IMG/VR virus record: IMGVR_UViG_3300044712_000123
From: a virus
Taxonomy: Duplodnaviria; Heunggongvirae; Uroviricota; Caudoviricetes
Reading direction: 5' to 3' (one strand)
DNA: 64,000 nucleotides
This document shows positions 7,764-51,650 of the stretch, in pieces. The position numbers and the translations under genes were made by a program. Numbering within the stretch: position 1 is the stretch's first letter; each line of letters begins with the position of its first letter. Below the pieces are notes generated by a model. It worked only from the letters and a program-made list of their open reading frames with translations, searched no databases and was not told the DNA's origin.

Positions 7764-7992
7764 TCAAGTTACCTTTCAAAGTAAAGTTTGCCAACACAGA
7801 ACGAGCGAGGGAAAGATCCTCGGCATCGTCAAAAATTTCTGCCATTTTTACTACAGTTTCCGATCGAGCCTGACGAATGATTTCGATTGCGTATTCAACA
7901 TCATCCTGACTGATTGACGAATACCATTCATCAAATTGCTCGGGAGTGAGTGACATGATGAAGTGCAGGTTATTGCGATCCCAATCATTCAT
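7759..7992 (-). CDS. hypothetical protein
   Basis: ORF on the track. Its start overlaps the stop of the EHFGVEE-family gene, inside the conserved 26-nt coupling block. Confidence 0.4.
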   Translation of the reverse strand: MNDWDRNNLHFIMSLTPEQFDEWYSSISQDDVEYAIEIIRQARSETVVKMAEIFDDAEDLSLARSVLANFTLKGNLK

Positions 7993-8300
7993 TCTTCAAC
8001 TCCGAAATGTTCTTTGATATCTGAATCCACAAGGCCGTTGTTAATCTGAGATAAACGACCCACATACATACATTCCCGAACAATTTGTTCTGCAAACTGT
8101 TCCAGCCAGTGCTCAACTACTTTGCCGTCACTGGTATCAGTAAGCGCCTTTACAATCTCTTTGGGATCAACTTTGGCTTGCTTACGTAATTTAGAAATTA
8201 GTTCCTTGTTCATATTAAGCCTCAACAGTGTAGGGTTTGTTCCAAGTACCGATAGACACGTCCACATACCAGCCCACATCGAAGTAGTCAGTTTGGACAT
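7989..8300 (-). CDS. small protein of the paralogous FAE.IV.EC...KEHFGVEE family (copy 1)
   Basis: C-terminal IKEHFGVEE and internal FAEQIVRECMY are shared with 23549..23827 and 45341..45550, and the last 26 nt are identical in all three. The true start may be the internal MNKELISK. Confidence 0.5.
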   Translation of the reverse strand: MSKLTTSMWAGMWTCLSVLGTNPTLLRLNMNKELISKLRKQAKVDPKEIVKALTDTSDGKVVEHWLEQFAEQIVRECMYVGRLSQINNGLVDSDIKEHFGVEE

Positions 8301-12955: not shown

Positions 12956-13648
12956 ATGCATATAGGTTTTGATGTAATCAGTGATCTTAATCTGTCTCCT
13001 GAAGACAGCTTCAATTGGGAAGGTAAGGCCACTAGCTTGTATTGTGTCATCGCTGGTAATATCAGCAATGACTTGCGAACTGTTAGACAAACGTTATTAC
13101 ACTTGTCTAAGTTATATCAAGGCATCTTTTATATCATCGGAACGTTAGAGTATGAAACAGCTACTGACATACAACAGCGCTCCGATGAAATTTTCAAACT
13201 ATGCGCTACTATCAAAAACGTAGCAGTACTACATCATCATGTAGTCATTATTGATGGCATTGCAGTCGTTGGTGCAAACGGTTGGTATGATGCAAAGCAT
13301 CAACATGCATCTGATTTAGAACTTGAAGGTCACAGACATGAAGACCTCTCATATTTAAAAAGCACACTTGAACGTCTTCAAAGACACTTGGACGTTAAGA
13401 AGATTTTCGTTGTTTCTCATTCTGTTCCAGGACCCGGTTTATACTTCGGTGAAGCTCCTAGTACAACAGAAACACATCTTTCACTAGACCTACTGCTAGG
13501 AGTCGATACTGAAAAGAAGATCACTCACTGGGCGTACGGCACATATGGAAAAGTAGTTGACACCACTATAAATGGCATCAACTACGTTAATAACTCATAC
13601 TACAAACGTAAGCCTTATTGGGCTAAACGTGTAGAAATCTCGATTTAA
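12956..13648 (+). CDS. hypothetical protein, possibly a calcineurin-like phosphoesterase
   Basis: ORF only; weak D/H/GN motifs. It is convergent with clpS and their stops overlap. Confidence 0.35.
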   Translation: MHIGFDVISDLNLSPEDSFNWEGKATSLYCVIAGNISNDLRTVRQTLLHLSKLYQGIFYIIGTLEYETATDIQQRSDEIFKLCATIKNVAVLHHHVVIIDGIAVVGANGWYDAKHQHASDLELEGHRHEDLSYLKSTLERLQRHLDVKKIFVVSHSVPGPGLYFGEAPSTTETHLSLDLLLGVDTEKKITHWAYGTYGKVVDTTINGINYVNNSYYKRKPYWAKRVEISI

Positions 13649-13950
13649 GCCTCTGCTTCTACTCGCACAAGCAATGGGAAGCCCTGATTACGCGCTTCCA
13701 AAGTGACCTCAGTCCCTTTTTGTTCTGCGATCTCGTAGGGCAATACTGCAACTACAGCAGAACCTTCATTATGGATGCTCTCTGTGATATTCATCGCAGT
13801 GTCAGTGTTGTAATTGAAATAGTCGATCAGGCTTCCTACAACAAACTCCATGCTAGTTACATCATCGTTCATGTAAATAATTTTGTACATAGGAGGCTCT
13901 TTAAGAGCAAGATTTGGTTTGATTTTAATTTTTGTTTCAGTTTTAGACAT
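13645..13950 (-). CDS. clpS: ATP-dependent Clp protease adaptor ClpS
   Basis: KEPPMYKIIYMNDDVTSMEFVV...PLL aligns with E. coli ClpS ([22 protein letters not shown]...PLL) across the core domain. Confidence 0.85.
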   Translation of the reverse strand: MSKTETKIKIKPNLALKEPPMYKIIYMNDDVTSMEFVVGSLIDYFNYNTDTAMNITESIHNEGSAVVAVLPYEIAEQKGTEVTLEARNQGFPLLVRVEAEA

Positions 13951-14014: not shown

Positions 14015-14458
14015 TTATTTAGTGTAACTGATAGCAATAGTTTTCGGCTTCTTTTCTTCTGGAACTCTACGTTCCAAATACACAGTTAGAATACCGTCAC
14101 GCTGACTAGCGTTTACAACTTCGACATGTTCGGCAAGTGTGAACTCACGGTCAAAGTCTCGGCTGCTAATACCGCGATGTAGGTACTCATTAGATGCATC
14201 CTCGTCCCGAACAATACGACCCTTGATACTTAATAGACGGTTGTCTAAGTTGATCTCCACTTCACCTTCACGGAAGCCAGCAGTAGCAACTTCAATATAG
14301 AAAGTGTCTTCTGTCTGTTTTACGATATTGTAAGGGGGATAGTTTAGGGATTGTTGAGCATTCATTCGTGCAAGTTCGTCAAACATGTTATCGAAACCGA
14401 TACCAAATTTGTGAATTGACGGAATGTCGAGGGAACGAAGGGTTAAAGTTTTTGTCAT
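14015..14458 (-). CDS. ibpA: small heat-shock protein, alpha-crystallin/Hsp20 family
   Basis: YPPYNI, AGF.E.E..I and LERR.PEEKKP match IbpA/IbpB; an AGGAG ribosome-binding site. Confidence 0.9.
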   Translation of the reverse strand: MTKTLTLRSLDIPSIHKFGIGFDNMFDELARMNAQQSLNYPPYNIVKQTEDTFYIEVATAGFREGEVEINLDNRLLSIKGRIVRDEDASNEYLHRGISSRDFDREFTLAEHVEVVNASQRDGILTVYLERRVPEEKKPKTIAISYTK

Positions 14459-14638: not shown

Positions 14639-15130
14639 ATGACTATTTATCTATACGTAAAGACCCACAACAAAACAGGGTTAAAATATCTAGGAAAAAC
14701 TACGGCAAAGGATCCTCATAAGTACAAGGGCTCAGGTACATATTGGATATCACATATCAAAAAGCATGGATATGATGTTAAAACTGAAATTATACAAGAA
14801 TGCCTAAATGTCAATGAAGTTGCTGAGTGGGGGATACATTACAGCAACCTATGGAATATAGTAGATTCATCTGAATGGGCTAATTTAAAACCTGAGTCAG
14901 GCGATGGAGGAAGCCCACCTAGAGATGTTGAAACTAAAATGAAAATTTCTGCTGTGATGAAGGGTAGACCTGCCCACAATAAGGGAAAGAAACAAGTTCA
15001 CAAAAAACACAAAGCTAGAAGTGATCTAAAGGGCAAAGTCAGACCTAAAATAGAATGCCCGCATTGCGGACGACACATAGATGAGGCAAATTATCACCGA
15101 TACCATGGTGATAGATGCAAATCAAAATAG
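14639..15130 (+). CDS. GIY-YIG homing endonuclease (Seg-like) with a C-terminal zinc finger
   Basis: IYLYVKTHNKTGLKYLGKT...YKGSG matches the GIY-YIG motif; C-terminal CPHCGRH...H. It is a lone + strand gene between - strand genes. Confidence 0.6.
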   Translation: MTIYLYVKTHNKTGLKYLGKTTAKDPHKYKGSGTYWISHIKKHGYDVKTEIIQECLNVNEVAEWGIHYSNLWNIVDSSEWANLKPESGDGGSPPRDVETKMKISAVMKGRPAHNKGKKQVHKKHKARSDLKGKVRPKIECPHCGRHIDEANYHRYHGDRCKSK

Positions 15131-15340
15131 CTTCTTAGGAAGACTTTGTTCACGCAAGAATTTCTTCCATCTAGACTTAGCTTTGGATTTCTTTAACTTG
15201 CGTTCAGTGGTAGGCTTAACAAACTGTTGTCTGTCTCTCACTTCTTGGAGAAGATCCATATCGGTTATCTTCTTCTTGAATTTACGTAGGGCTTTCTCTA
15301 CGTTACCATCTGTTACAATTACTCGTCTTCCTTTTTTCAT
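15122..15340 (-). CDS. rpsU: 30S ribosomal protein S21
   Basis: ALRKFKKK...L.EVR.R..F.KPTTERK matches bacterial bS21 (ALRRFKR...LAEVRRREFYEKPTTERK). Its start overlaps the clpX stop as ATGA. Confidence 0.8.
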   Translation of the reverse strand: MKKGRRVIVTDGNVEKALRKFKKKITDMDLLQEVRDRQQFVKPTTERKLKKSKAKSRWKKFLREQSLPKKLF

Positions 15341-16542
15341 ATAAGTTCAATGGGTGTTAAAACTTGCTCCCGACTAATATTTATCTTGGTTACGTTATTT
15401 TCACGATATTTCTTAGTGTTGAACATGTGTGGCATCAATACACGCTCGATTTCAGTGTGTAATCCACGTGCACCGGTCTTCAATTTGATAGTGTTTTCAG
15501 CAAGTTGTTCTAGTGCTTCTTGGTCAAACGTAAGTTCAATCCCGTCTAGACTTAGCAAATACTTATATTGGTCAATATAGTTGTTCTTGACACCGGTCAA
15601 AACTTTAACCAGTTGTTCTTTGGTCAAATTATCAATAGAAACTGAGGTAGTGAATCGGCCAATGAATTCAGGAATCATACCAAATTTAGTCAAGTCATCC
15701 GGTGTGACCAGAGTCAAGTCTCCTTCTCTGTTCTTATCTTTGACTTTGGCACTAAAACCAATACTAGAACCATCTGTACGTTTAGCAATAACGTCTTTCA
15801 ATCCGACGAATGCGCCACCTGCAATGAACAAGATATTCTTGGTGTTAATTTCAATCATGTCTCCTGCAGGATTCTTGCGACCACCTTGGGCAGGGACTCG
15901 ACAGACAGTACCTTCAACCAACTTCAATAACGCTTGTTGAACACCTTCACCTGATACGTCACGTGTGATACTTGTCGATTCTCCTTTACGTGCAATTTTG
16001 TCGATTTCATCAACAAACACAATACCACGTTCTGCAAGTTTGCTATCGCCACCAGCAGCATTCAACAGCATACTAATCATTGATTCAACGTCATCACCCA
16101 CATAACCAGCTTCGGTCAAGCTAGTGGCATCCGTGACTACGAACGGAACATTCAAATACTTTGCTACACTTTTAGCAAGCAATGTCTTACCTGAACCAGT
16201 TGGTCCTATGATTAGCACGTTACCTTTAGAGATTTCTAGGTCTTTGGGAGGATTGTTGATTCGCTTGTAGTGATTAGCAATAGCTACGCTCAATACTTTC
16301 TTTGCGCTATCTTGCCCAATAACATGTAAATCCAGATATTCTTTGATAGATGATGGGTCAAAACGTTCATCATTCTTTTGAACCACTTCCTCTACGGAAG
16401 TTTCGTCAGTGAGCAACTGACCGCATAGTTCGATACAATCGCTACAAATAGCAACATCTTCACCTACGATTAATTTTTTTACCAGATCCTTGTGGTTACC
16501 GCAAAATGAGCAGTGAGTTAGTGTTTTTGATTCAGTGGTCAT
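15337..16542 (-). CDS. clpX: ATP-dependent Clp protease ATP-binding subunit ClpX
   Basis: N-terminal zinc-binding CSFCG...CSDCIELC, Walker A GPTGSGKT, sensor motifs and a 401-aa length. Confidence 0.95.
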   Translation of the reverse strand: MTTESKTLTHCSFCGNHKDLVKKLIVGEDVAICSDCIELCGQLLTDETSVEEVVQKNDERFDPSSIKEYLDLHVIGQDSAKKVLSVAIANHYKRINNPPKDLEISKGNVLIIGPTGSGKTLLAKSVAKYLNVPFVVTDATSLTEAGYVGDDVESMISMLLNAAGGDSKLAERGIVFVDEIDKIARKGESTSITRDVSGEGVQQALLKLVEGTVCRVPAQGGRKNPAGDMIEINTKNILFIAGGAFVGLKDVIAKRTDGSSIGFSAKVKDKNREGDLTLVTPDDLTKFGMIPEFIGRFTTSVSIDNLTKEQLVKVLTGVKNNYIDQYKYLLSLDGIELTFDQEALEQLAENTIKLKTGARGLHTEIERVLMPHMFNTKKYRENNVTKINISREQVLTPIELI

Positions 16543-17566: not shown

Positions 17567-18196
17567 TTAGTTACCGAAACGTTTACGAAGGCTTTCAGCT
17601 TGGCGATCACTACCCAAGTCCCAACGAATAGTGACAGCTACCTCTTGAGGGCCTACGATTTCTTGTTTGACAGTTTTAAAGCCACGCAAGATACCAGTAG
17701 CATTGACACGAATCGTTTCAGTCAATTGGTATGCAGTGTTGTTTGAATTTTCACGTACACTGTGATTAGAGTCTTTTTCTGCATCAGTGTCAGACATTGC
17801 TACCACTTCACCTTCAACAGTTTTTGACTTCAATCGGTCACTAGCACGTTCAACGTTCTTGGCGATTGTGTTGGTAACACGTGAGCTAGTAACTTCTTCA
17901 TTGATAAAGTGACGAACCTGAGCACGGGCACGATCACCTGCACGAATCAACGCAGTACGACGGTTAGATTCAGTGTTGCCGTTAGTTGCGGCTGTGCCAA
18001 TTGATTCAATAGAAACGATATCACATTCATTCTTATTGACAGTGTACCACTTGCAGTCAGTTTCAATCTTGATGCCTTCTGCTACGAATGTGGTTGACAG
18101 TTTCTGATTGCGAATTGGTTCGCTTGAATTAGTCAACGGATTTGAACTACAACCTACGAGGGCAACAGTTGCAAGTGCGATCAATGCGAGTTTCAT
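17567..18196 (-). CDS. putative lipoprotein
   Basis: MKLALIALATVALVGCSS lipobox. Confidence 0.5.
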   Translation of the reverse strand: MKLALIALATVALVGCSSNPLTNSSEPIRNQKLSTTFVAEGIKIETDCKWYTVNKNECDIVSIESIGTAATNGNTESNRRTALIRAGDRARAQVRHFINEEVTSSRVTNTIAKNVERASDRLKSKTVEGEVVAMSDTDAEKDSNHSVRENSNNTAYQLTETIRVNATGILRGFKTVKQEIVGPQEVAVTIRWDLGSDRQAESLRKRFGN

Positions 18197-18249: not shown

Positions 18250-19815
18250 TCAACCTTTTTGTGCTTTCAAATATTCTTCAATCTCAAGTTTTTCAGTTTC
18301 GGACAACAACTCTACATCATACTGCCCATTCTCGATATTATCTACTAGGTACTTGATGTATTCCTGATTGTGTAGATAAGAATCCGATTGTTCCTTGTTA
18401 ACCTCGATCCATTTGGAACTGTCAAATTTGTATACACGATTTGGTAATGCATCAACACGAACAAACACATCACCCTTTGAAGCATAATCTGGGAACTTAG
18501 TGCCAAAGTTAGTGCTGATATTTCTTACTGAGTCAGCAGTCAATCTAAAGAGTTCAGGATGCAATCCTTGCAATGCATCTTTGTGCATCAACGCACCGTT
18601 GTAAGTGACATACCCACCTTCAACTTCATTGATTGGATCTTCTTTAGTAACGTTCTCGGTTATGATTGGAGCTTCTACTTTTGGTTCTGGTTTGTATACC
18701 ATCGGAGTAGTATCTTTAAAGTGATCGAATCCTGCTAGTAAGTATGGGTGTTGTTCAAAGATAGACTTTTCTTCTTTGACTTCTACCACTGGTTCTTCTA
18801 CTTGAGTTTCGTCATAGTCTAACGGGTGCTCACCTAAGTCCACGAACTTAACGGGCTCTTTGGGTAGTATAACTTCTGGAACTTCTTTTTCAATCTCGTC
18901 AATTAGTTTGTTACCTTCATCAATATCAGGGAACAACTCTGACTTAGTGATTACTTCACCTACAGGTTCTTCTTTGATTACTTCACGTAATTTTTCTAAC
19001 GCTTCTTCGTTAATAGGCCCGTCATCAGGTTCATATGCAGGTTCTTCATCGTCCCAATCTTTACTCTGGTTGGCAGCTAATACAAGTGCAATAGCAAGCG
19101 GATCAAATACAGCAACAAGCAAGATAATAACCCAACGAACAGCGGCTTCTAGCATGTTCTCGTCAGCATTGTCACCGTAAATCAATGCGGCGATATATTT
19201 TATTGGTCCTACTTCTGCCTCGACTTTACGTACCTCTGCGGCCAGGGGCGCTCTCTCCTCAGATAACTGACTAATCGTTTTCTGTTCGGCTTGGATTTCT
19301 GCAATAATACGTGCTCGTTCTTTTTGTTGACTTTTACGGACTGCAACTGCTTTATCAGCACCCGTTTCTGATGTACTTCTGCCCATGATCTGGTCCACAG
19401 ATTCATCCATCTGTTTAAGTACTTTACGGTTCGCATCAATGTTGTCCTTCGCTGTTTTAATTTTTTCGTCAAAAATAGATACTTTCGCTACTGCGTCACC
19501 TGACACTACACCTTGATCCATGTGTGCCTTTGACAAGAAGCCAAAGATACCCATACTTGTTAGCATTGCTAATGCAACTACTGCCGGAACAAGATATAGT
19601 TTAATAAGCCAACCAGCACGATGCCAGTATTTGCGTAGCCAAACTGTTGTAGTGATCTTCCCCACTTCGAGGATTGAACCCATGATAATAACTGGAATAA
19701 CCGCACCGGCAAAGATAGCAGTTAGACCAATGATACTATAGTAGGCTGCTACTGAGCTAAGTGACAGTGCTACTAATAGAGTGAGATTAGAAAAGGATAG
19801 AAATTTTAAGCGCAT
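18250..19815 (-). CDS. membrane protein with N-terminal transmembrane helices, a central coiled-coil, an acidic linker and a C-terminal globular domain
   Basis: Composition only; several hydrophobic helices and a Gln/Glu/Lys-rich heptad region. Confidence 0.45.
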   Translation of the reverse strand: MRLKFLSFSNLTLLVALSLSSVAAYYSIIGLTAIFAGAVIPVIIMGSILEVGKITTTVWLRKYWHRAGWLIKLYLVPAVVALAMLTSMGIFGFLSKAHMDQGVVSGDAVAKVSIFDEKIKTAKDNIDANRKVLKQMDESVDQIMGRSTSETGADKAVAVRKSQQKERARIIAEIQAEQKTISQLSEERAPLAAEVRKVEAEVGPIKYIAALIYGDNADENMLEAAVRWVIILLVAVFDPLAIALVLAANQSKDWDDEEPAYEPDDGPINEEALEKLREVIKEEPVGEVITKSELFPDIDEGNKLIDEIEKEVPEVILPKEPVKFVDLGEHPLDYDETQVEEPVVEVKEEKSIFEQHPYLLAGFDHFKDTTPMVYKPEPKVEAPIITENVTKEDPINEVEGGYVTYNGALMHKDALQGLHPELFRLTADSVRNISTNFGTKFPDYASKGDVFVRVDALPNRVYKFDSSKWIEVNKEQSDSYLHNQEYIKYLVDNIENGQYDVELLSETEKLEIEEYLKAQKG

Positions 19816-23216: not shown

Positions 23217-23552
23217 TCATTTTACTCCTAAAAGTTTCTTTTCTTCGGCTGTCAATTTAGACAGTGCTTTTTCTTTAGCTTCAACTTCTGCTAATTGTTT
23301 GCGTAAGTTGTCACTAGTCACTACTGTGACTTCAGTGGTAGTAGTTTTACCTGAGGCTCGCTGGTGTGTAATGACCTCGCTAGAAGAAGGACACTTTGCG
23401 ATAAAGAAATTATAGCCTCGAGGATTGTCAACATACTTGACCAAACATCCGTCGGCTTCAACTTCATACTTGACGAAAGGTACAGACAGCGTATCTCTGG
23501 GGTTACAACCTGCTAACAGTGCAACAACTCCGATCAACAGAATATATTTCAT
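23217..23552 (-). CDS. putative lipoprotein
   Basis: MKYILLIGVVALLAGCNP lipobox; its start sits in the conserved coupling block. Confidence 0.5.
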   Translation of the reverse strand: MKYILLIGVVALLAGCNPRDTLSVPFVKYEVEADGCLVKYVDNPRGYNFFIAKCPSSSEVITHQRASGKTTTTEVTVVTSDNLRKQLAEVEAKEKALSKLTAEEKKLLGVK

Positions 23553-23827
23553 TCTTCAACTCCGAAATGTTCTTTGACTTGTTGTTTGACTGACTCCAGA
23601 CCCCAGAAGAATCCTTCGCTCACTAGGGCATTTTGATTGTCGTTGTATTGTGGCTGTTCATTAAAGGCAAATCCTGCTTTATTCACTCGGTCCATACATT
23701 CCTGCACAATCAACTCGGCGAATTTTTCTAAGTCAACACTTTTACCTTCATGAACTGATCCGTCGTGTGAGGTGTATGTTTCTACCAATGTTGCCTGGCG
23801 GCGTAGTTCTTTAATTCGTTCGTTCAT
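23549..23827 (-). CDS. EHFGVEE-family small protein (copy 2)
   Basis: LEKFAELIVQECMDRV...VKEHFGVEE. Confidence 0.5.
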   Translation of the reverse strand: MNERIKELRRQATLVETYTSHDGSVHEGKSVDLEKFAELIVQECMDRVNKAGFAFNEQPQYNDNQNALVSEGFFWGLESVKQQVKEHFGVEE

Positions 23828-25726: not shown

Positions 25727-26080
25727 TTACTTTTTAGTAGCTTGGTTGACGAAGCCGTACATCTTTTCGGCAGCTTCTAAAATCTTATCTAGTCCTGGAA
25801 ACTCGGGCATTGCTACAGTAGTTGTTACTTGTCCAGTACGTTCATCTCTCAATGCAGTGATTTCCCAACCATGCATCTTAACTTGATAGTCTTGCATGAC
25901 GATGTCCTTAGCCATTGCTAGAACGTCTGCACGAATCTCATATCCGTTTTTGTTGAATTTAACTTCTGGTAGTTTTGGTGTTTCGAATTGCGACATGATG
26001 TGTCTCCTGTGTTTATGTGTGTTGATTATAACAGAATTGTTATGTTTGTTAATTATTTCGGCAAGATCGGAGTAGCCCAC
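25727..26080 (-). CDS. hypothetical protein
   Basis: ORF on the track. Confidence 0.4.
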   Translation of the reverse strand: MGYSDLAEIINKHNNSVIINTHKHRRHIMSQFETPKLPEVKFNKNGYEIRADVLAMAKDIVMQDYQVKMHGWEITALRDERTGQVTTTVAMPEFPGLDKILEAAEKMYGFVNQATKK

Positions 26081-26628
26081 AATTTCGTTAAACGATTGCG
26101 TAATTTTCCGAATTCATCGAATATTTCTTTTTGCTCTTTAAAGAGTTGTGCGTTAGCTTCAAAGACTGTTGGATTAGGAACCTCGATTGAGGCTGTGCGT
26201 TCACCGTCACCTCTACTTCTAGTTCTCAATTCATTCTTATTAGCCAAGTGTTGAATGACACGGTTATCTTCTATGCAATGCATATAGACCTCAGTGATAT
26301 GGTGAAACTTAGCCCATGCTAACATTTCAGTAATCAATTGATTGCCAATGCCTTGACGTTGAAAATCTTTCTGTACGGATACAGCAAGTTCCCATGAGCC
26401 ATCCTCGTTCTTTGCCATATGACCCCAACCCACACGTTCACCGTCATCACGTGCATACCACAGTTCGTGGTCTTGTGGATGATAGCACATACGCAAAACT
26501 AGTTGATCGATAGAGTGGTCACTTGCAGGATAACCGAAACGACTGACTTTATCATCAGGTGTCAGTGCCTTCAAGTGACGACTATAATCACTAATCTTGT
26601 ATATGTTAGTGTGATGGACTTGCATCAT
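26053..26628 (-). CDS. GNAT-family N-acetyltransferase
   Basis: Motif A QRQGIGNQLITEML. Confidence 0.55.
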   Translation of the reverse strand: MMQVHHTNIYKISDYSRHLKALTPDDKVSRFGYPASDHSIDQLVLRMCYHPQDHELWYARDDGERVGWGHMAKNEDGSWELAVSVQKDFQRQGIGNQLITEMLAWAKFHHITEVYMHCIEDNRVIQHLANKNELRTRSRGDGERTASIEVPNPTVFEANAQLFKEQKEIFDEFGKLRNRLTKLWATPILPK

Positions 26629-45162: not shown

Positions 45163-45344
45163 CTTTCAACGTCAGTGATGTCCATCTTGATAGATTGCTT
45201 TGGATCGAACTCAATAGTAGTGACTGCACCAATACCCCCACCCTTGCTTGAATCTTCTGTAATGATTACCCGATCTAAATCATACATCTCAAATACTTCT
45301 TTTAGTTTCTCAAACTGCTTTCTTGTTATTACAACTTGTCTCAT
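45156..45344 (-). CDS. hypothetical protein
   Basis: ORF; its start sits in the conserved coupling block. Confidence 0.3.
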   Translation of the reverse strand: MRQVVITRKQFEKLKEVFEMYDLDRVIITEDSSKGGGIGAVTTIEFDPKQSIKMDITDVESW

Positions 45345-45550
45345 TCTTCAACTCCGAAATGTTCTTTAATTCTTCTACTGACAAATGCATTAGGGTCATT
45401 AAACCCTGCAACATCAGCGCATTCTTTTACGATCAACTCAGCAAACTTTTCTAAGCTGAATACATGGGTATGTAATCCAGTTTGTCCCGGCATATGAACC
45501 ATCGACTGTTCTGCGATGTTTTCAAATACTTCACGCATCATGTTCCCCAT
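45341..45550 (-). CDS. EHFGVEE-family small protein (copy 3)
   Basis: LEKFAELIVKECADVA...IKEHFGVEE. Confidence 0.5.
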   Translation of the reverse strand: MGNMMREVFENIAEQSMVHMPGQTGLHTHVFSLEKFAELIVKECADVAGFNDPNAFVSRRIKEHFGVEE

Positions 45551-47555: not shown

Positions 47556-47770
47556 TAATATCCTAATCGTTCTTTTCTTTGTTCTTCTGTTTCGTCACGT
47601 TGTAAGTGAATGAAGATGCATCCTTCCACACCGCAACCGCAAACAATGTGATATTCTCTAACGATACGCTCTGCGGCTTTAACTTCGCCGCGCTTGAGCA
47701 AACTGTTGACAATCTCACGTTCATGCTTGGCAGCACTTAGGTCTTTAGGTGAAAGGAAGCGACCGCTCAT
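47555..47770 (-). CDS. hypothetical small Cys-rich protein
   Basis: ORF with a CGCGVEGC cluster. Confidence 0.3.
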   Translation of the reverse strand: MSGRFLSPKDLSAAKHEREIVNSLLKRGEVKAAERIVREYHIVCGCGVEGCIFIHLQRDETEEQRKERLGY

Positions 47771-48270
47771 GCAAGTAAATCCTCATTCCATTCACGATGA
47801 CCTTCACGGAAAGCCATGTTGCTCTGTGTCTCACGTACTTCAACACGATAGCACCACAATCTTTTTGCTTCACCTTCGCCCCACATGTCAGGGATGTAAA
47901 CACCATTAACATATTTGTAAAGCATATCTGCAAGACTTTCACACCCTAAGCGTGGAAGAATTGTTAGTTTAGCCATCTTCTTTTCTTGCAATAATTTGAA
48001 TGTTTCAAGTTCAGGGTCATCTTCTGCGACTAACAATGTGTGGTCGAATTGATCTTCAAGAATCTTCTTCAATTCTTTTAAGCCACCGTAGTCTGCTGCC
48101 CAATTGCGAACATCTAAGTCATCAGTACCAAAATAGAACTTCATACTGAAACTATATCCGTGAATTGTATTGCAGTGACTATCCGCGCGCCATTGACGAT
48201 AAGCGCAAGGGAATGAATCGTGGTACTCTTTAGTACTTGTGTATTTGTAACTTACTAGTTGATTTGCCAT
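47767..48270 (-). CDS. queD: 6-carboxytetrahydropterin synthase-like protein (QueD/PTPS family, variant zinc motif)
   Basis: CNTIHGYSF aligns to the QueD CxxxHGH motif with the last His replaced by Tyr; T-fold length. Confidence 0.55.
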   Translation of the reverse strand: MANQLVSYKYTSTKEYHDSFPCAYRQWRADSHCNTIHGYSFSMKFYFGTDDLDVRNWAADYGGLKELKKILEDQFDHTLLVAEDDPELETFKLLQEKKMAKLTILPRLGCESLADMLYKYVNGVYIPDMWGEGEAKRLWCYRVEVRETQSNMAFREGHREWNEDLLA

Positions 48271-50969: not shown

Positions 50970-51650
50970 TTATTTGCTACCTTTGTTTGCGATTTGCAAG
51001 AACTCTGCACGTGCCGCTGGATCAGTTTTGAAACCGCCACCTAAGCGACAAGTAACTGTACTTGAACCTGTATCTTCTACACCACGTGATTTTACGCAAT
51101 AGTGTTGTGCGTCAATCATAACTGCAACGTCTTCTGTATCAAGGATGAACTGTAGTGTGTGAAAGATTTGTTCAGTCAATCGTTCTTGAATCTGTGGTCT
51201 CTTAGAGAAGTATTCCACAATTCGATTAATCTTGGACAATCCGAGAACCTTCTGCTTAGGAACATATGCCACAGTAGCGAGGCCGTCAATAACGACAAAG
51301 TGATGTTCACAGTTACTCTGGACGTTAACGTTACGTTCCACGACCATTTCATTATACTGCATCTTATTGTCAACGGTGGTACATTTTGGAAACGCTTCAT
51401 AATCTAGACCCCAAAAGATTTCATTGACATACATCTTAGCAACACGCTTTGGTGTTTCGATAAGACTGTCATCGAATAGATCAAGTCCCATTGTTTCCAT
51501 GATCTTTTGAAAATGACTTTCAATGATATCAATCTTTTCTTTGCGGTCTAGAGTGTTTGCTTTTGTGGGTGTCTCGACTCCCATCTTAACTAGATGTTCG
51601 TGAACTTGTTGACCCAATGCTGGATCTGTTTTTGTTTTATTGTAACTCAT
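50970..51650 (-). CDS. folE: GTP cyclohydrolase I
   Basis: ETPKRVAKMYVNEIF, CEHHFV, LGLSKINRIV, RPQIQERLT and HYCVKSRG are identical or near-identical to E. coli FolE blocks. Confidence 0.95.
   Translation of the reverse strand: MSYNKTKTDPALGQQVHEHLVKMGVETPTKANTLDRKEKIDIIESHFQKIMETMGLDLFDDSLIETPKRVAKMYVNEIFWGLDYEAFPKCTTVDNKMQYNEMVVERNVNVQSNCEHHFVVIDGLATVAYVPKQKVLGLSKINRIVEYFSKRPQIQERLTEQIFHTLQFILDTEDVAVMIDAQHYCVKSRGVEDTGSSTVTCRLGGGFKTDPAARAEFLQIANKGSK

Follow-up and report, generated by a model that had tools for sequence, protein, structure and literature searches.

A phage bS21 gene overlapping clpX in a conserved gene block of Atu_ph07-related jumbo phages

Ribosomal protein bS21 is among the ribosomal proteins most commonly encoded by viruses. 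According to PMC7162821 (citing van Duin and Wijnands 1981) and PMC9723584, bS21 is located on the platform of the 30S subunit by the 3' end of the 16S rRNA, is exchangeable, and is important for initiation. Here, a 64,000-nt stretch of DNA from IMG/VR virus record IMGVR_UViG_3300044712_000123 (the window) was analysed, in which a phage gene encoding bS21 (rpsU, product S21) overlaps the stop codon of clpX, the gene of an AAA+ unfoldase. A preliminary description of this locus had stated that S21 was already reported in phages, in agreement with PMC6375957, PMC7162821, and PMC9723584.

When a pelagiphage bS21 was expressed in E. coli, the protein was stably incorporated in 70S ribosomes, as seen by mass spectrometry, and E. 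coli ribosomes carrying it displayed approximately 5% of wild-type translation in vitro (PMC6375957). Among the genes located up to ten positions from bS21 in a survey of 900 phages encoding it were Hsp20 (n = 127) and two Clp protease pVOGs (n = 50 and n = 47) (PMC9723584). In Francisella tularensis, alternative bS21 paralogues alter which mRNAs are translated well (PMC9578407, PMC12262407). Moreover, clpX has been described beside topoisomerase genes and the gene of translation initiation factor IF3 (infC) in the jumbo phages Atu_ph07 and AP-J-162, where this neighbourhood was read in terms of replication, not translation (PMC6102473, PMC11242549).

Whereas phage bS21 is thus familiar, its vertically inherited clpX-(infC)-rpsU-hsp20-clpS context is apparently undescribed; no description of this cassette was found in the open-access literature. 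The data reveal bS21 in one large jumbo-phage clade as a long-term resident that has co-diverged with ClpX, and not as a sporadic recent capture. It is usually accompanied by phage IF3, which controls start-site selection and works on the same 30S face as bS21. The cassette thereby provides a concrete three- or four-gene unit in which the making of specialised ribosomes by phages, and a possible involvement of regulated proteolysis or unfolding, can be addressed.

The clpX-rpsU junction and the block around it

The product of the upstream open reading frame (ORF) exceeded the cut-offs of both NCBIfam equivalogs for ClpX (NF003745, 517.5 bits, cut-off 359; TIGR00382, 493 bits, cut-off 370.75), and contains the Pfam domains PF06689 (zf-C4_ClpX, 51.2 bits), AAA_2 (107.4 bits), and ClpB_D2-small. 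Residue-level alignment to the solved ClpX 6sfw (399 bits) identified the four zinc-finger cysteines of the C4 N-domain (CSFCG...ICSDC), Walker A (GPTGSGKT), the GYVG pore loop (AGYVGDDV), the DEID of Walker B (VFVDEIDK), the GGRKNP loop (QGGRKNP), and the ClpP-docking IGF loop (SSIGFSA). The rpsU product was recognised by PF01165 (51.2 bits, cut-off 27, E = 1e-13), by the TIGR00030 equivalog (52.8 bits, cut-off 28.95), and by phrog_21469 'ribosomal protein S21' (44.2 bits), and it has the size and core features of the bS21 family (small and basic, ~55-75 aa, ALRrFKr ... E.R.r..y.KPt/s..RK). It shares 25 of 57 residues with E. coli bS21 (44% over 57 aa), including the string KPTTERK, which spans residues 42-48 of the window protein. 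Its best scores, 33-34 bits, were obtained against gammaproteobacterial bS21, as compared to 22.7 bits against bS21 of Flavobacterium johnsoniae. The rpsU ORF is a bS21 homologue and the upstream ORF is a canonical ClpX. The preliminary description, which had proposed a bS21 homologue with a KPTTERK signature behind clpX and had named a bS21 profile search as its refutation test, holds on all of these points: the search placed the ORF in bS21, and the upstream partner is clpX by profile as well as by motif.

On the minus strand the junction reads GAA CTT ATA TGA, in which the rpsU ATG (15340..15338) is formed by the last A of the clpX ATA codon and the TG of the clpX TGA stop (15339..15337), so that S21 starts at an ATGA (15340..15337) exactly as had been claimed. 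The overlap is not remarkable by itself, and was rejected as such, since 4-nt overlaps occur in 16 of the 85 same-strand adjacent ORF pairs of the window. The linkage of the two genes goes beyond chance because it is conserved across relatives, and not because of the overlap as such. Related loci were collected from IMG/VR (80 of 376 matches) and from metagenome and metagenome-assembled genome (MAG) look-ups (six), giving 86 relatives, or 87 loci when the window is counted. In the window and in 86/86 relatives clpX lies directly upstream of S21, while S21 identity across these loci decreases from 97% to 57% and ClpX identity goes down to 50%. The ATGA is kept in 68 of the 87 loci (67 of the 86 relatives); the genes overlap by 7-35 nt in another 14 and are separated by 0 to +6 nt in the remaining five, so that the clpX-S21 distance never exceeds 6 nt.

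The 65 distinct S21 sequences from these loci share the near-invariant core DGNxEKALRKFKK...QEvRdRq..vKPt..RK...RW...LPkkl[F/Y]. The LPKKL[FY] ending may resemble that of betaproteobacterial bS21. Pairwise ratios of nonsynonymous to synonymous substitution rates (dN/dS) were approximately 0.10 (70 codons, 616 pairs with usable dS), and 0.068 in comparison with the closest relative; S21 is under purifying selection and its function is retained. Pairwise distances of ClpX and S21 were strongly correlated over the 130 loci with both genes (Mantel r = 0.90, reached by none of 999 permutations), and the correlation was retained in the set of distant loci alone (r = 0.85). Joint inheritance of the two genes thus extends to a depth of ~41-51% ClpX identity: S21 and ClpX have co-diverged, and S21 is old in this lineage.

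The clpX-rpsU pair of the preliminary description was correct in its arrangement and too narrow in its frame, as the pair sits in a larger conserved block, clpX-(infC)-rpsU-hsp20-clpS with clpP nearby, that is vertically inherited across a large clade of jumbo phages related to Atu_ph07. This wider clade was sampled by an IMG/VR scan with ClpX of Sinorhizobium phage Phosso, yielding 80 loci at 40-84% identity, in which the ORFs downstream of clpX were searched with hidden Markov models (HMMs) of IF3 and S21. The order clpX>infC>rpsU was found in 59/80 loci, with all junctions overlapping or at most 8 nt in length; clpX was followed by infC only in 8/80 and directly by rpsU in 6/80, looser variants were seen in 4/80, and neither infC nor rpsU was found after clpX in 3/80. 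Pfam agreed with the IF3 and S21 calls on ten sampled proteins. In one locus (L200) an unrelated 159-aa ORF occupies the slot between clpX and rpsU. Further downstream, tblastn with the window proteins located hsp20 after S21 in 53/80 and clpS after S21 in 61/80 of the loci; hsp20 likewise follows S21 in most related loci with enough downstream sequence, and clpS is syntenic in the close relatives. The minus-strand order of the window (clpX, rpsU, a homing endonuclease on the plus strand, hsp20, clpS) matches that of the close relatives and the wider clade. Phosso and Agrobacterium phage Atu_ph07 have a gene for a two-domain IF3 (Pfam IF3_N and IF3_C above cut-off) 59-65 nt behind clpX, and S21 of Phosso is encoded ~7.4 kb from clpX and has no BLAST similarity to window S21.

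The S21 proteins of the clpX-infC-rpsU loci (L131-L210, e.g., L137 4234..5005) have 10-45-aa extensions of basic and aromatic character at the N-terminus, and some, in L200 and L179, have long basic C-terminal tails, while S21 of the window clade is without extensions. The infC ORFs of the wider-clade loci often begin at or within the clpX stop. In E. coli, infC starts with the non-canonical AUU.

In the window, the clpX-rpsU junction leaves no room for infC between the genes, and infC was not found elsewhere in it: the IF3 HMM gave no hit in any frame of the 64 kb at E <= 10, and tblastn gave E > 1. In a neighbour-joining tree of ClpX the window clade forms one group, all of the clpX>rpsU type, while two other deep groups contain the three-gene form; small lineages of the clpX>rpsU type also occur separately. 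The direct abutment in the window clade looks like a derived state, with infC presumably lost at the base of the clade. Weighing against this loss, the tree is a rough midpoint-rooted one in which deep branching is unreliable.

Translation of rpsU and the proposed role of S21

The 25 nt 5' of the S21 ATG (aagttttaacacccattgaacttat) are without a Shine-Dalgarno (SD)-like sequence, and the clpX ATG is likewise without an SD in front. The phage to which the window belongs (41% G+C) does use SD sequences, as anti-SD pairing at -4.5 kcal/mol or better was found at 46% of 103 window ORF starts versus 10% of random sites. Among the 55 distinct overlapping clpX-rpsU junctions, 48 were without SD-like pairing (mean -0.5 kcal/mol) and the other seven had only a GGAG ~16-19 nt upstream, which was judged too distant when the junction sequences were read by eye. 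Four distinct junctions do not overlap, and two of these have a strong SD (AAGGAG in L007, -8.5 kcal/mol; AAGGAGG in L126/L127, -11.4 kcal/mol); the remaining two are borderline (L117, -4.3 kcal/mol) or without SD (L006). The absence of SDs at overlaps and their presence in two of the four non-overlapping junctions, in an SD-using genome, is the pattern predicted by termination-reinitiation coupling. We infer from the sequence that translation of rpsU is coupled to that of clpX and that the genes are co-transcribed. The kept overlap, the lack of an SD before S21, and the strong SDs at two of the four distinct non-overlapping junctions support the clpX-rpsU translational unit put forward in the preliminary description.

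The same data bear on the rather unlikely explanation that the adjacency is only historical, in which S21 and IF3 would have landed by clpX once and have been kept there by packing, with S21 being ribosomal, ClpX functionally unrelated to it, and the overlap a by-product of compaction. The frequency of ATGA overlaps among the same-strand pairs of the window is in line with such a history. Moreover, the link is breakable, as Phosso and Atu_ph07 keep clpX-infC with S21 ~7 kb off and eight of the 80 wider-clade loci are without S21 after infC, and a literature search gave neither a precedent nor a known biochemical connection for a ClpXP-bS21 link. However, the junction persists to 41% ClpX identity while the spacer after S21 has repeatedly been invaded (103 nt to 2.8 kb, homing endonucleases), the slot after clpX has been taken by two different initiation components, and SDs are missing at overlaps and strong at two of the four distinct non-overlapping junctions.

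The reading proposed here, held with moderate confidence, is that translational coupling to clpX yields S21, which is taken up by host 30S subunits and changes initiation there. The clpX and rpsU genes would be co-transcribed, and rpsU, being without a ribosome-binding site of its own, would be read by ribosomes coming straight from termination at the clpX stop. Such reinitiation would tie the amount and timing of S21 to those of ClpX in a fixed proportion. As a bS21 of proteobacterial type, S21 would be placed on the host 30S platform, next to the 3' end of the 16S rRNA, and its entry into host 30S subunits appears most likely because bS21 is readily exchangeable. Once on the 30S subunit, it would change translation initiation during infection, probably to the benefit of the phage, while ClpX with phage ClpP would remodel or degrade proteins in the same early or middle programme. 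A bias toward phage mRNAs and a functional tie between ClpX and S21 would be in keeping with this scheme, and a direct ClpX-S21 interaction is speculation.

Several points weigh against coupled translation and its proposed outcome. Since 4-nt overlaps are common in the window, the overlap could merely reflect tight packing, and SD-independent initiation on the A/U-rich junction is a possible alternative to coupling. Promoter and terminator scans yielded consensus matches at background frequency, with no consistent operon boundaries. Furthermore, in the single available experiment on a phage bS21, the approximately 5% activity of ribosomes with the pelagiphage protein in a heterologous host fits inhibition as well as reprogramming.

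A terminator-like hairpin, as a weakly supported candidate, is located 51 nt 3' of the rpsU stop, within the inserted segment described below, and the terminator scan found no equivalent site in L001, a relative without the insertion. In L005 the only convincing terminator candidate comes after hsp20, and the original unit may therefore have been clpX-rpsU-hsp20.

IF3, which shares its face of the 30S subunit with bS21, controls the fidelity of start-codon and initiator-tRNA selection. Its presence in the slot after clpX in relatives strongly favours a ribosome-directed role of S21 over a non-ribosomal one, and its position between clpX and S21 in relatives gives some comparative support to the hypothesis, raised in the preliminary description, of a coordinated takeover of proteolysis and translation. 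Exaptation of S21 to a non-ribosomal role, e.g., as a small basic RNA-binding protein, a ClpX adaptor, or a substrate-delivery factor, is considered very improbable. It could draw on the constant company of genes for an unfoldase, a small heat-shock protein, and a Clp adaptor, on the variable basic N- or C-terminal extensions of the cassette homologues, and on a reported extraribosomal association of bS21 with the OLE ribonucleoprotein (PMC12054373). It is opposed by the observations that the most conserved parts of S21 are its ribosomal core motifs, that window S21 is canonical in length and above the equivalog cut-off, that a genuine two-domain IF3 as cassette neighbour points to the 30S subunit, and that a pelagiphage bS21 does enter ribosomes.

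A ribosomal role does not by itself imply selectivity, and S21 could also be a maintenance or supply gene that completes ribosomes when host rpsU is shut off or bS21 is lost, sustaining bulk translation with no bias to phage mRNAs. This possibility is a serious one, although it is judged unlikely. The loose binding and exchangeability of bS21 (PMC6375957) agree with it, as do the nearness of window S21 to cellular proteobacterial bS21 in length and core, without an extension, and the neighbouring proteostasis genes, which also resemble maintenance functions. On the other hand, E. coli bS21 is without two features shared by the phage clade, the conserved RW and the LPKKL[FY] tail. In a scan biased by its peptide patterns, no cellular genome gave a match above 57% identity, and the top two matches were phage-like contigs. 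In addition, IF3, a start-site selectivity factor, is carried alongside, which suggests altered selectivity.

A more elaborate version of the proposed scheme, which we consider quite doubtful, is a 'destroy-and-replace' module in which ClpX, phage ClpP, and ClpS-directed host ClpA would clear host platform factors and phage bS21 and IF3 would replace them, making phage-specialised ribosomes. Its targets would be host bS21, IF3, or hibernating or defence-modified 30S complexes, and the conserved start/stop coupling would set the stoichiometry of replacement.

Neighbouring genes, insertion site and phage affiliation

The positions of the genes and other features discussed are collected in Table 1. 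The hsp20 gene has its own SD (taggagaaaaacATG). ClpS of the window scores well above the Pfam cut-off and remains under the NCBIfam ClpS equivalog cut-off (77 bits versus 149), and no ClpA-type partner for it is encoded in the 64-kb window; ClpS may serve host ClpA, or a phage ClpA encoded elsewhere, as Atu_ph07 encodes ClpA (PMC6102473). The full-length clpP gene, 3.3 kb past clpS and in the same orientation, is near the cassette in most relatives, with 76-100% identity, and phage ClpP is the likely partner of phage ClpX. Window ClpP also matches several PHROG 'head maturation protease' families (phrog_94, 181 bits). A 'prohead protease' has been counted near phage bS21 in 310 of 900 genomes (PMC9723584), and this count may partly represent ClpP from such cassettes.

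Table 1. Features of the window mentioned in the text (positions in nt)
Feature	Position	Strand	Basis
clpX, AAA+ unfoldase, 401 aa	15337..16542	-	profiles and alignment to solved ClpX
rpsU, phage-encoded bS21, 72 aa, canonical length, without N-terminal extension	15122..15340	-	profiles
ATGA stop/start overlap of clpX and rpsU, putative termination-reinitiation site	15337..15340	-	sequence
Terminator-like hairpin GTCCGC-AAT-GCGGGC with T-rich tail	15057..15071	-	consensus scan only; weak
Free-standing homing-endonuclease ORF, 163 aa, in S21-hsp20 spacer	14639..15130	+	phrog_314, E = 1.4e-11
hsp20, IbpA-like small heat-shock protein	14015..14458	-	PF00011 62.6 bits; phrog_432 135 bits
clpS, adaptor of ClpA-type Clp proteases	13645..13950	-	PF02617 88 bits (cut-off 23)
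clpP, proteolytic subunit, 196 aa	9788..10378	-	PF00574 271.9 bits
Predicted lipoprotein	17567..18196	-	
521-aa protein with hydrophobic N-terminal half	18250..19815	-	
GNAT acetyltransferase	26053..26628	-	PF00583 48.9 bits
6-pyruvoyl-tetrahydropterin synthase (PTPS)/QueD-like	47767..48270	-	63 bits
GTP cyclohydrolase I	50970..51650	-	207 bits
Small paralogous ORF	7989..8300	-	
Small paralogous ORF	23549..23827	-	
Small paralogous ORF	45341..45550	-	

The homing-endonuclease ORF in the S21-hsp20 spacer is convergent with rpsU, and its 3' end overlaps the last rpsU codons and stop. Homology to the endonuclease-free L001 ends at ~15132, ~10 nt before the rpsU stop, and restarts at ~14507, ~50 nt before hsp20; the position of this break indicates that the insertion replaced the spacer together with the last few rpsU codons. 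The same endonuclease is present at the same site in L069 (95%) and L053 (70%), and most relatives are without it. Spacer length varies between 103 nt and 2.8 kb: many relatives have ~105 nt, others 0.66-0.85 kb, a large group ~2.06-2.1 kb, and three 2.8 kb. The spacer is an insertion hot spot, and the endonuclease is outside the conserved cassette.

The window encodes a T4-type family-B DNA polymerase with best phage matches to Phosso (49%) and Atu_ph07 (46%), followed by Rak2-like jumbo phages, and its ClpX likewise has its best phage matches in Phosso and Atu_ph07 (52-53%). These similarities indicate that the window derives from a jumbo phage with a distant relationship to Atu_ph07 and Phosso. 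Relatives were found on viral contigs in IMG/VR that reach 524 kb, with several of 300-367 kb, and also on one 361-kb JGI metagenome contig (Ga0486076_000004). An origin of the window as a cellular fragment was rejected, given its polymerase of phage type, its homing endonuclease, and the presence of relatives on viral contigs as large as 524 kb. Proteins 76-97% identical to S21 are abundant in metagenomes, where 2439 clusters match it at E <= 0.001. Megablast with 5 kb around the locus gave no nucleotide match in GenBank phages, and tblastn with window S21 against 50,697 GenBank phage records gave no match at E <= 1e-3, so that no cultured close relative was found. The other profiled genes of the window encode a DNA ligase, a 5'-3' exonuclease, UvdE, sugar-nucleotide enzymes, and an SPFH protein, besides many ORFans; by function, the profiled set covers replication, repair, metabolism, and proteostasis. 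No terminase, capsid, portal, or other structural gene was among the ORFs profiled in the 64-kb window, and Rfam and tRNA scans of the window found nothing.

In a GTDB peptide-pattern scan, nearly all cellular bS21 matches came from the single pattern EKALRKFK. The top two (57%) were contigs of MAGs filed as Chitinophagales and Polynucleobacter (L006, CAZXGO010000081.1; L007, CAYVBV010000123.1). Both are short contigs that carry the phage block of membrane protein, clpX, S21, hsp20, and clpS, and their labels were rejected as host evidence in view of this synteny, the contigs probably being mis-binned phage DNA.

Two genes just upstream of clpX accompany the cassette in almost every close relative, at an identity (27-70%) far below that of ClpX and S21: one encodes a predicted lipoprotein, with an N-terminus (MKLALIALATVALVGCSS) that looks like a lipoprotein signal peptide, and the other encodes a 521-aa protein. 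Elsewhere in the window, genes for GTP cyclohydrolase I and a PTPS/QueD-like protein lie a few kb apart, which suggests a pterin or 7-deazaguanine pathway; the PTPS gene of Phosso is ~8 kb upstream of its clpX. A GNAT acetyltransferase is also encoded. Finally, three small paralogous ORFs of 69-103 aa have in common an internal FAE(L/Q)IV.EC motif and the C-terminus IKEHFGVEE*, which is identical in all three. The 28-30 nt of near-identical DNA encoding this C-terminus close with an ATGA, at which each ORF overlaps the next gene downstream; the three downstream genes are unrelated.

Comparison with known systems

In E. coli, rpsU-dnaG-rpoD and clpP-clpX are separate operons. The rpsU and clpX genes of the window belong to the same families as their E. 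coli counterparts and share their motifs (the IGF loop and zinc finger in ClpX, KPTTERK in S21), and as the E. coli genes are in separate operons, the phage arrangement is not copied from the E. coli model. The bS21 paralogues of Francisella provide a precedent for the reprogramming of initiation by a bS21 swap, in a cellular and not a viral setting, and with no protease or unfoldase linkage reported. Bacillus phage G was considered as a further phage case and rejected, as its clpP-clpX is followed by an ORF without a Pfam match.

The bS21 proteins of pelagiphages of the HTVC008M type and other viruses (Mizuno et al. 2019, PMC6375957) resemble window S21 in being under strong purifying selection, with a ratio of nonsynonymous to synonymous polymorphism (pN/pS) of ~0.10 there and a dN/dS of ~0.10 here. 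They differ in their contexts, which are variable and described without mention of Clp or Hsp20, whereas clpX is upstream of S21 in every relative examined here. The large bS21-encoding phages described by Chen et al. 2022 (up to 331 kb; PMC9723584) are comparable in that their bS21 is proposed to substitute into host ribosomes. In the freshwater Bacteroidetes phages of that study, however, bS21 is Flavobacteriia-like and located in a late structural module with terminase, capsid, portal, and prohead protease genes, neither of which applies to window S21; their hosts are without SD sequences, whereas the window phage uses SDs. The same study tabulates Hsp20 and Clp neighbours without analysis, and IF3 and the clpX junction are unmentioned.

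The cultured phages nearest to that of the window are Atu_ph07, Phosso, and AP-J-162 (Polybotosvirus and relatives; PMC6102473, PMC11242549), at the levels of polymerase (46-49%) and ClpX (52-53%) identity given above, and they also encode ClpX, ClpP, ClpS, Hsp20, IF3, and S21. The difference lies in the order of these genes: in these phages clpX is followed across its gap by infC and S21 does not abut clpX, whereas in the window and its close relatives S21 takes the position immediately after clpX.

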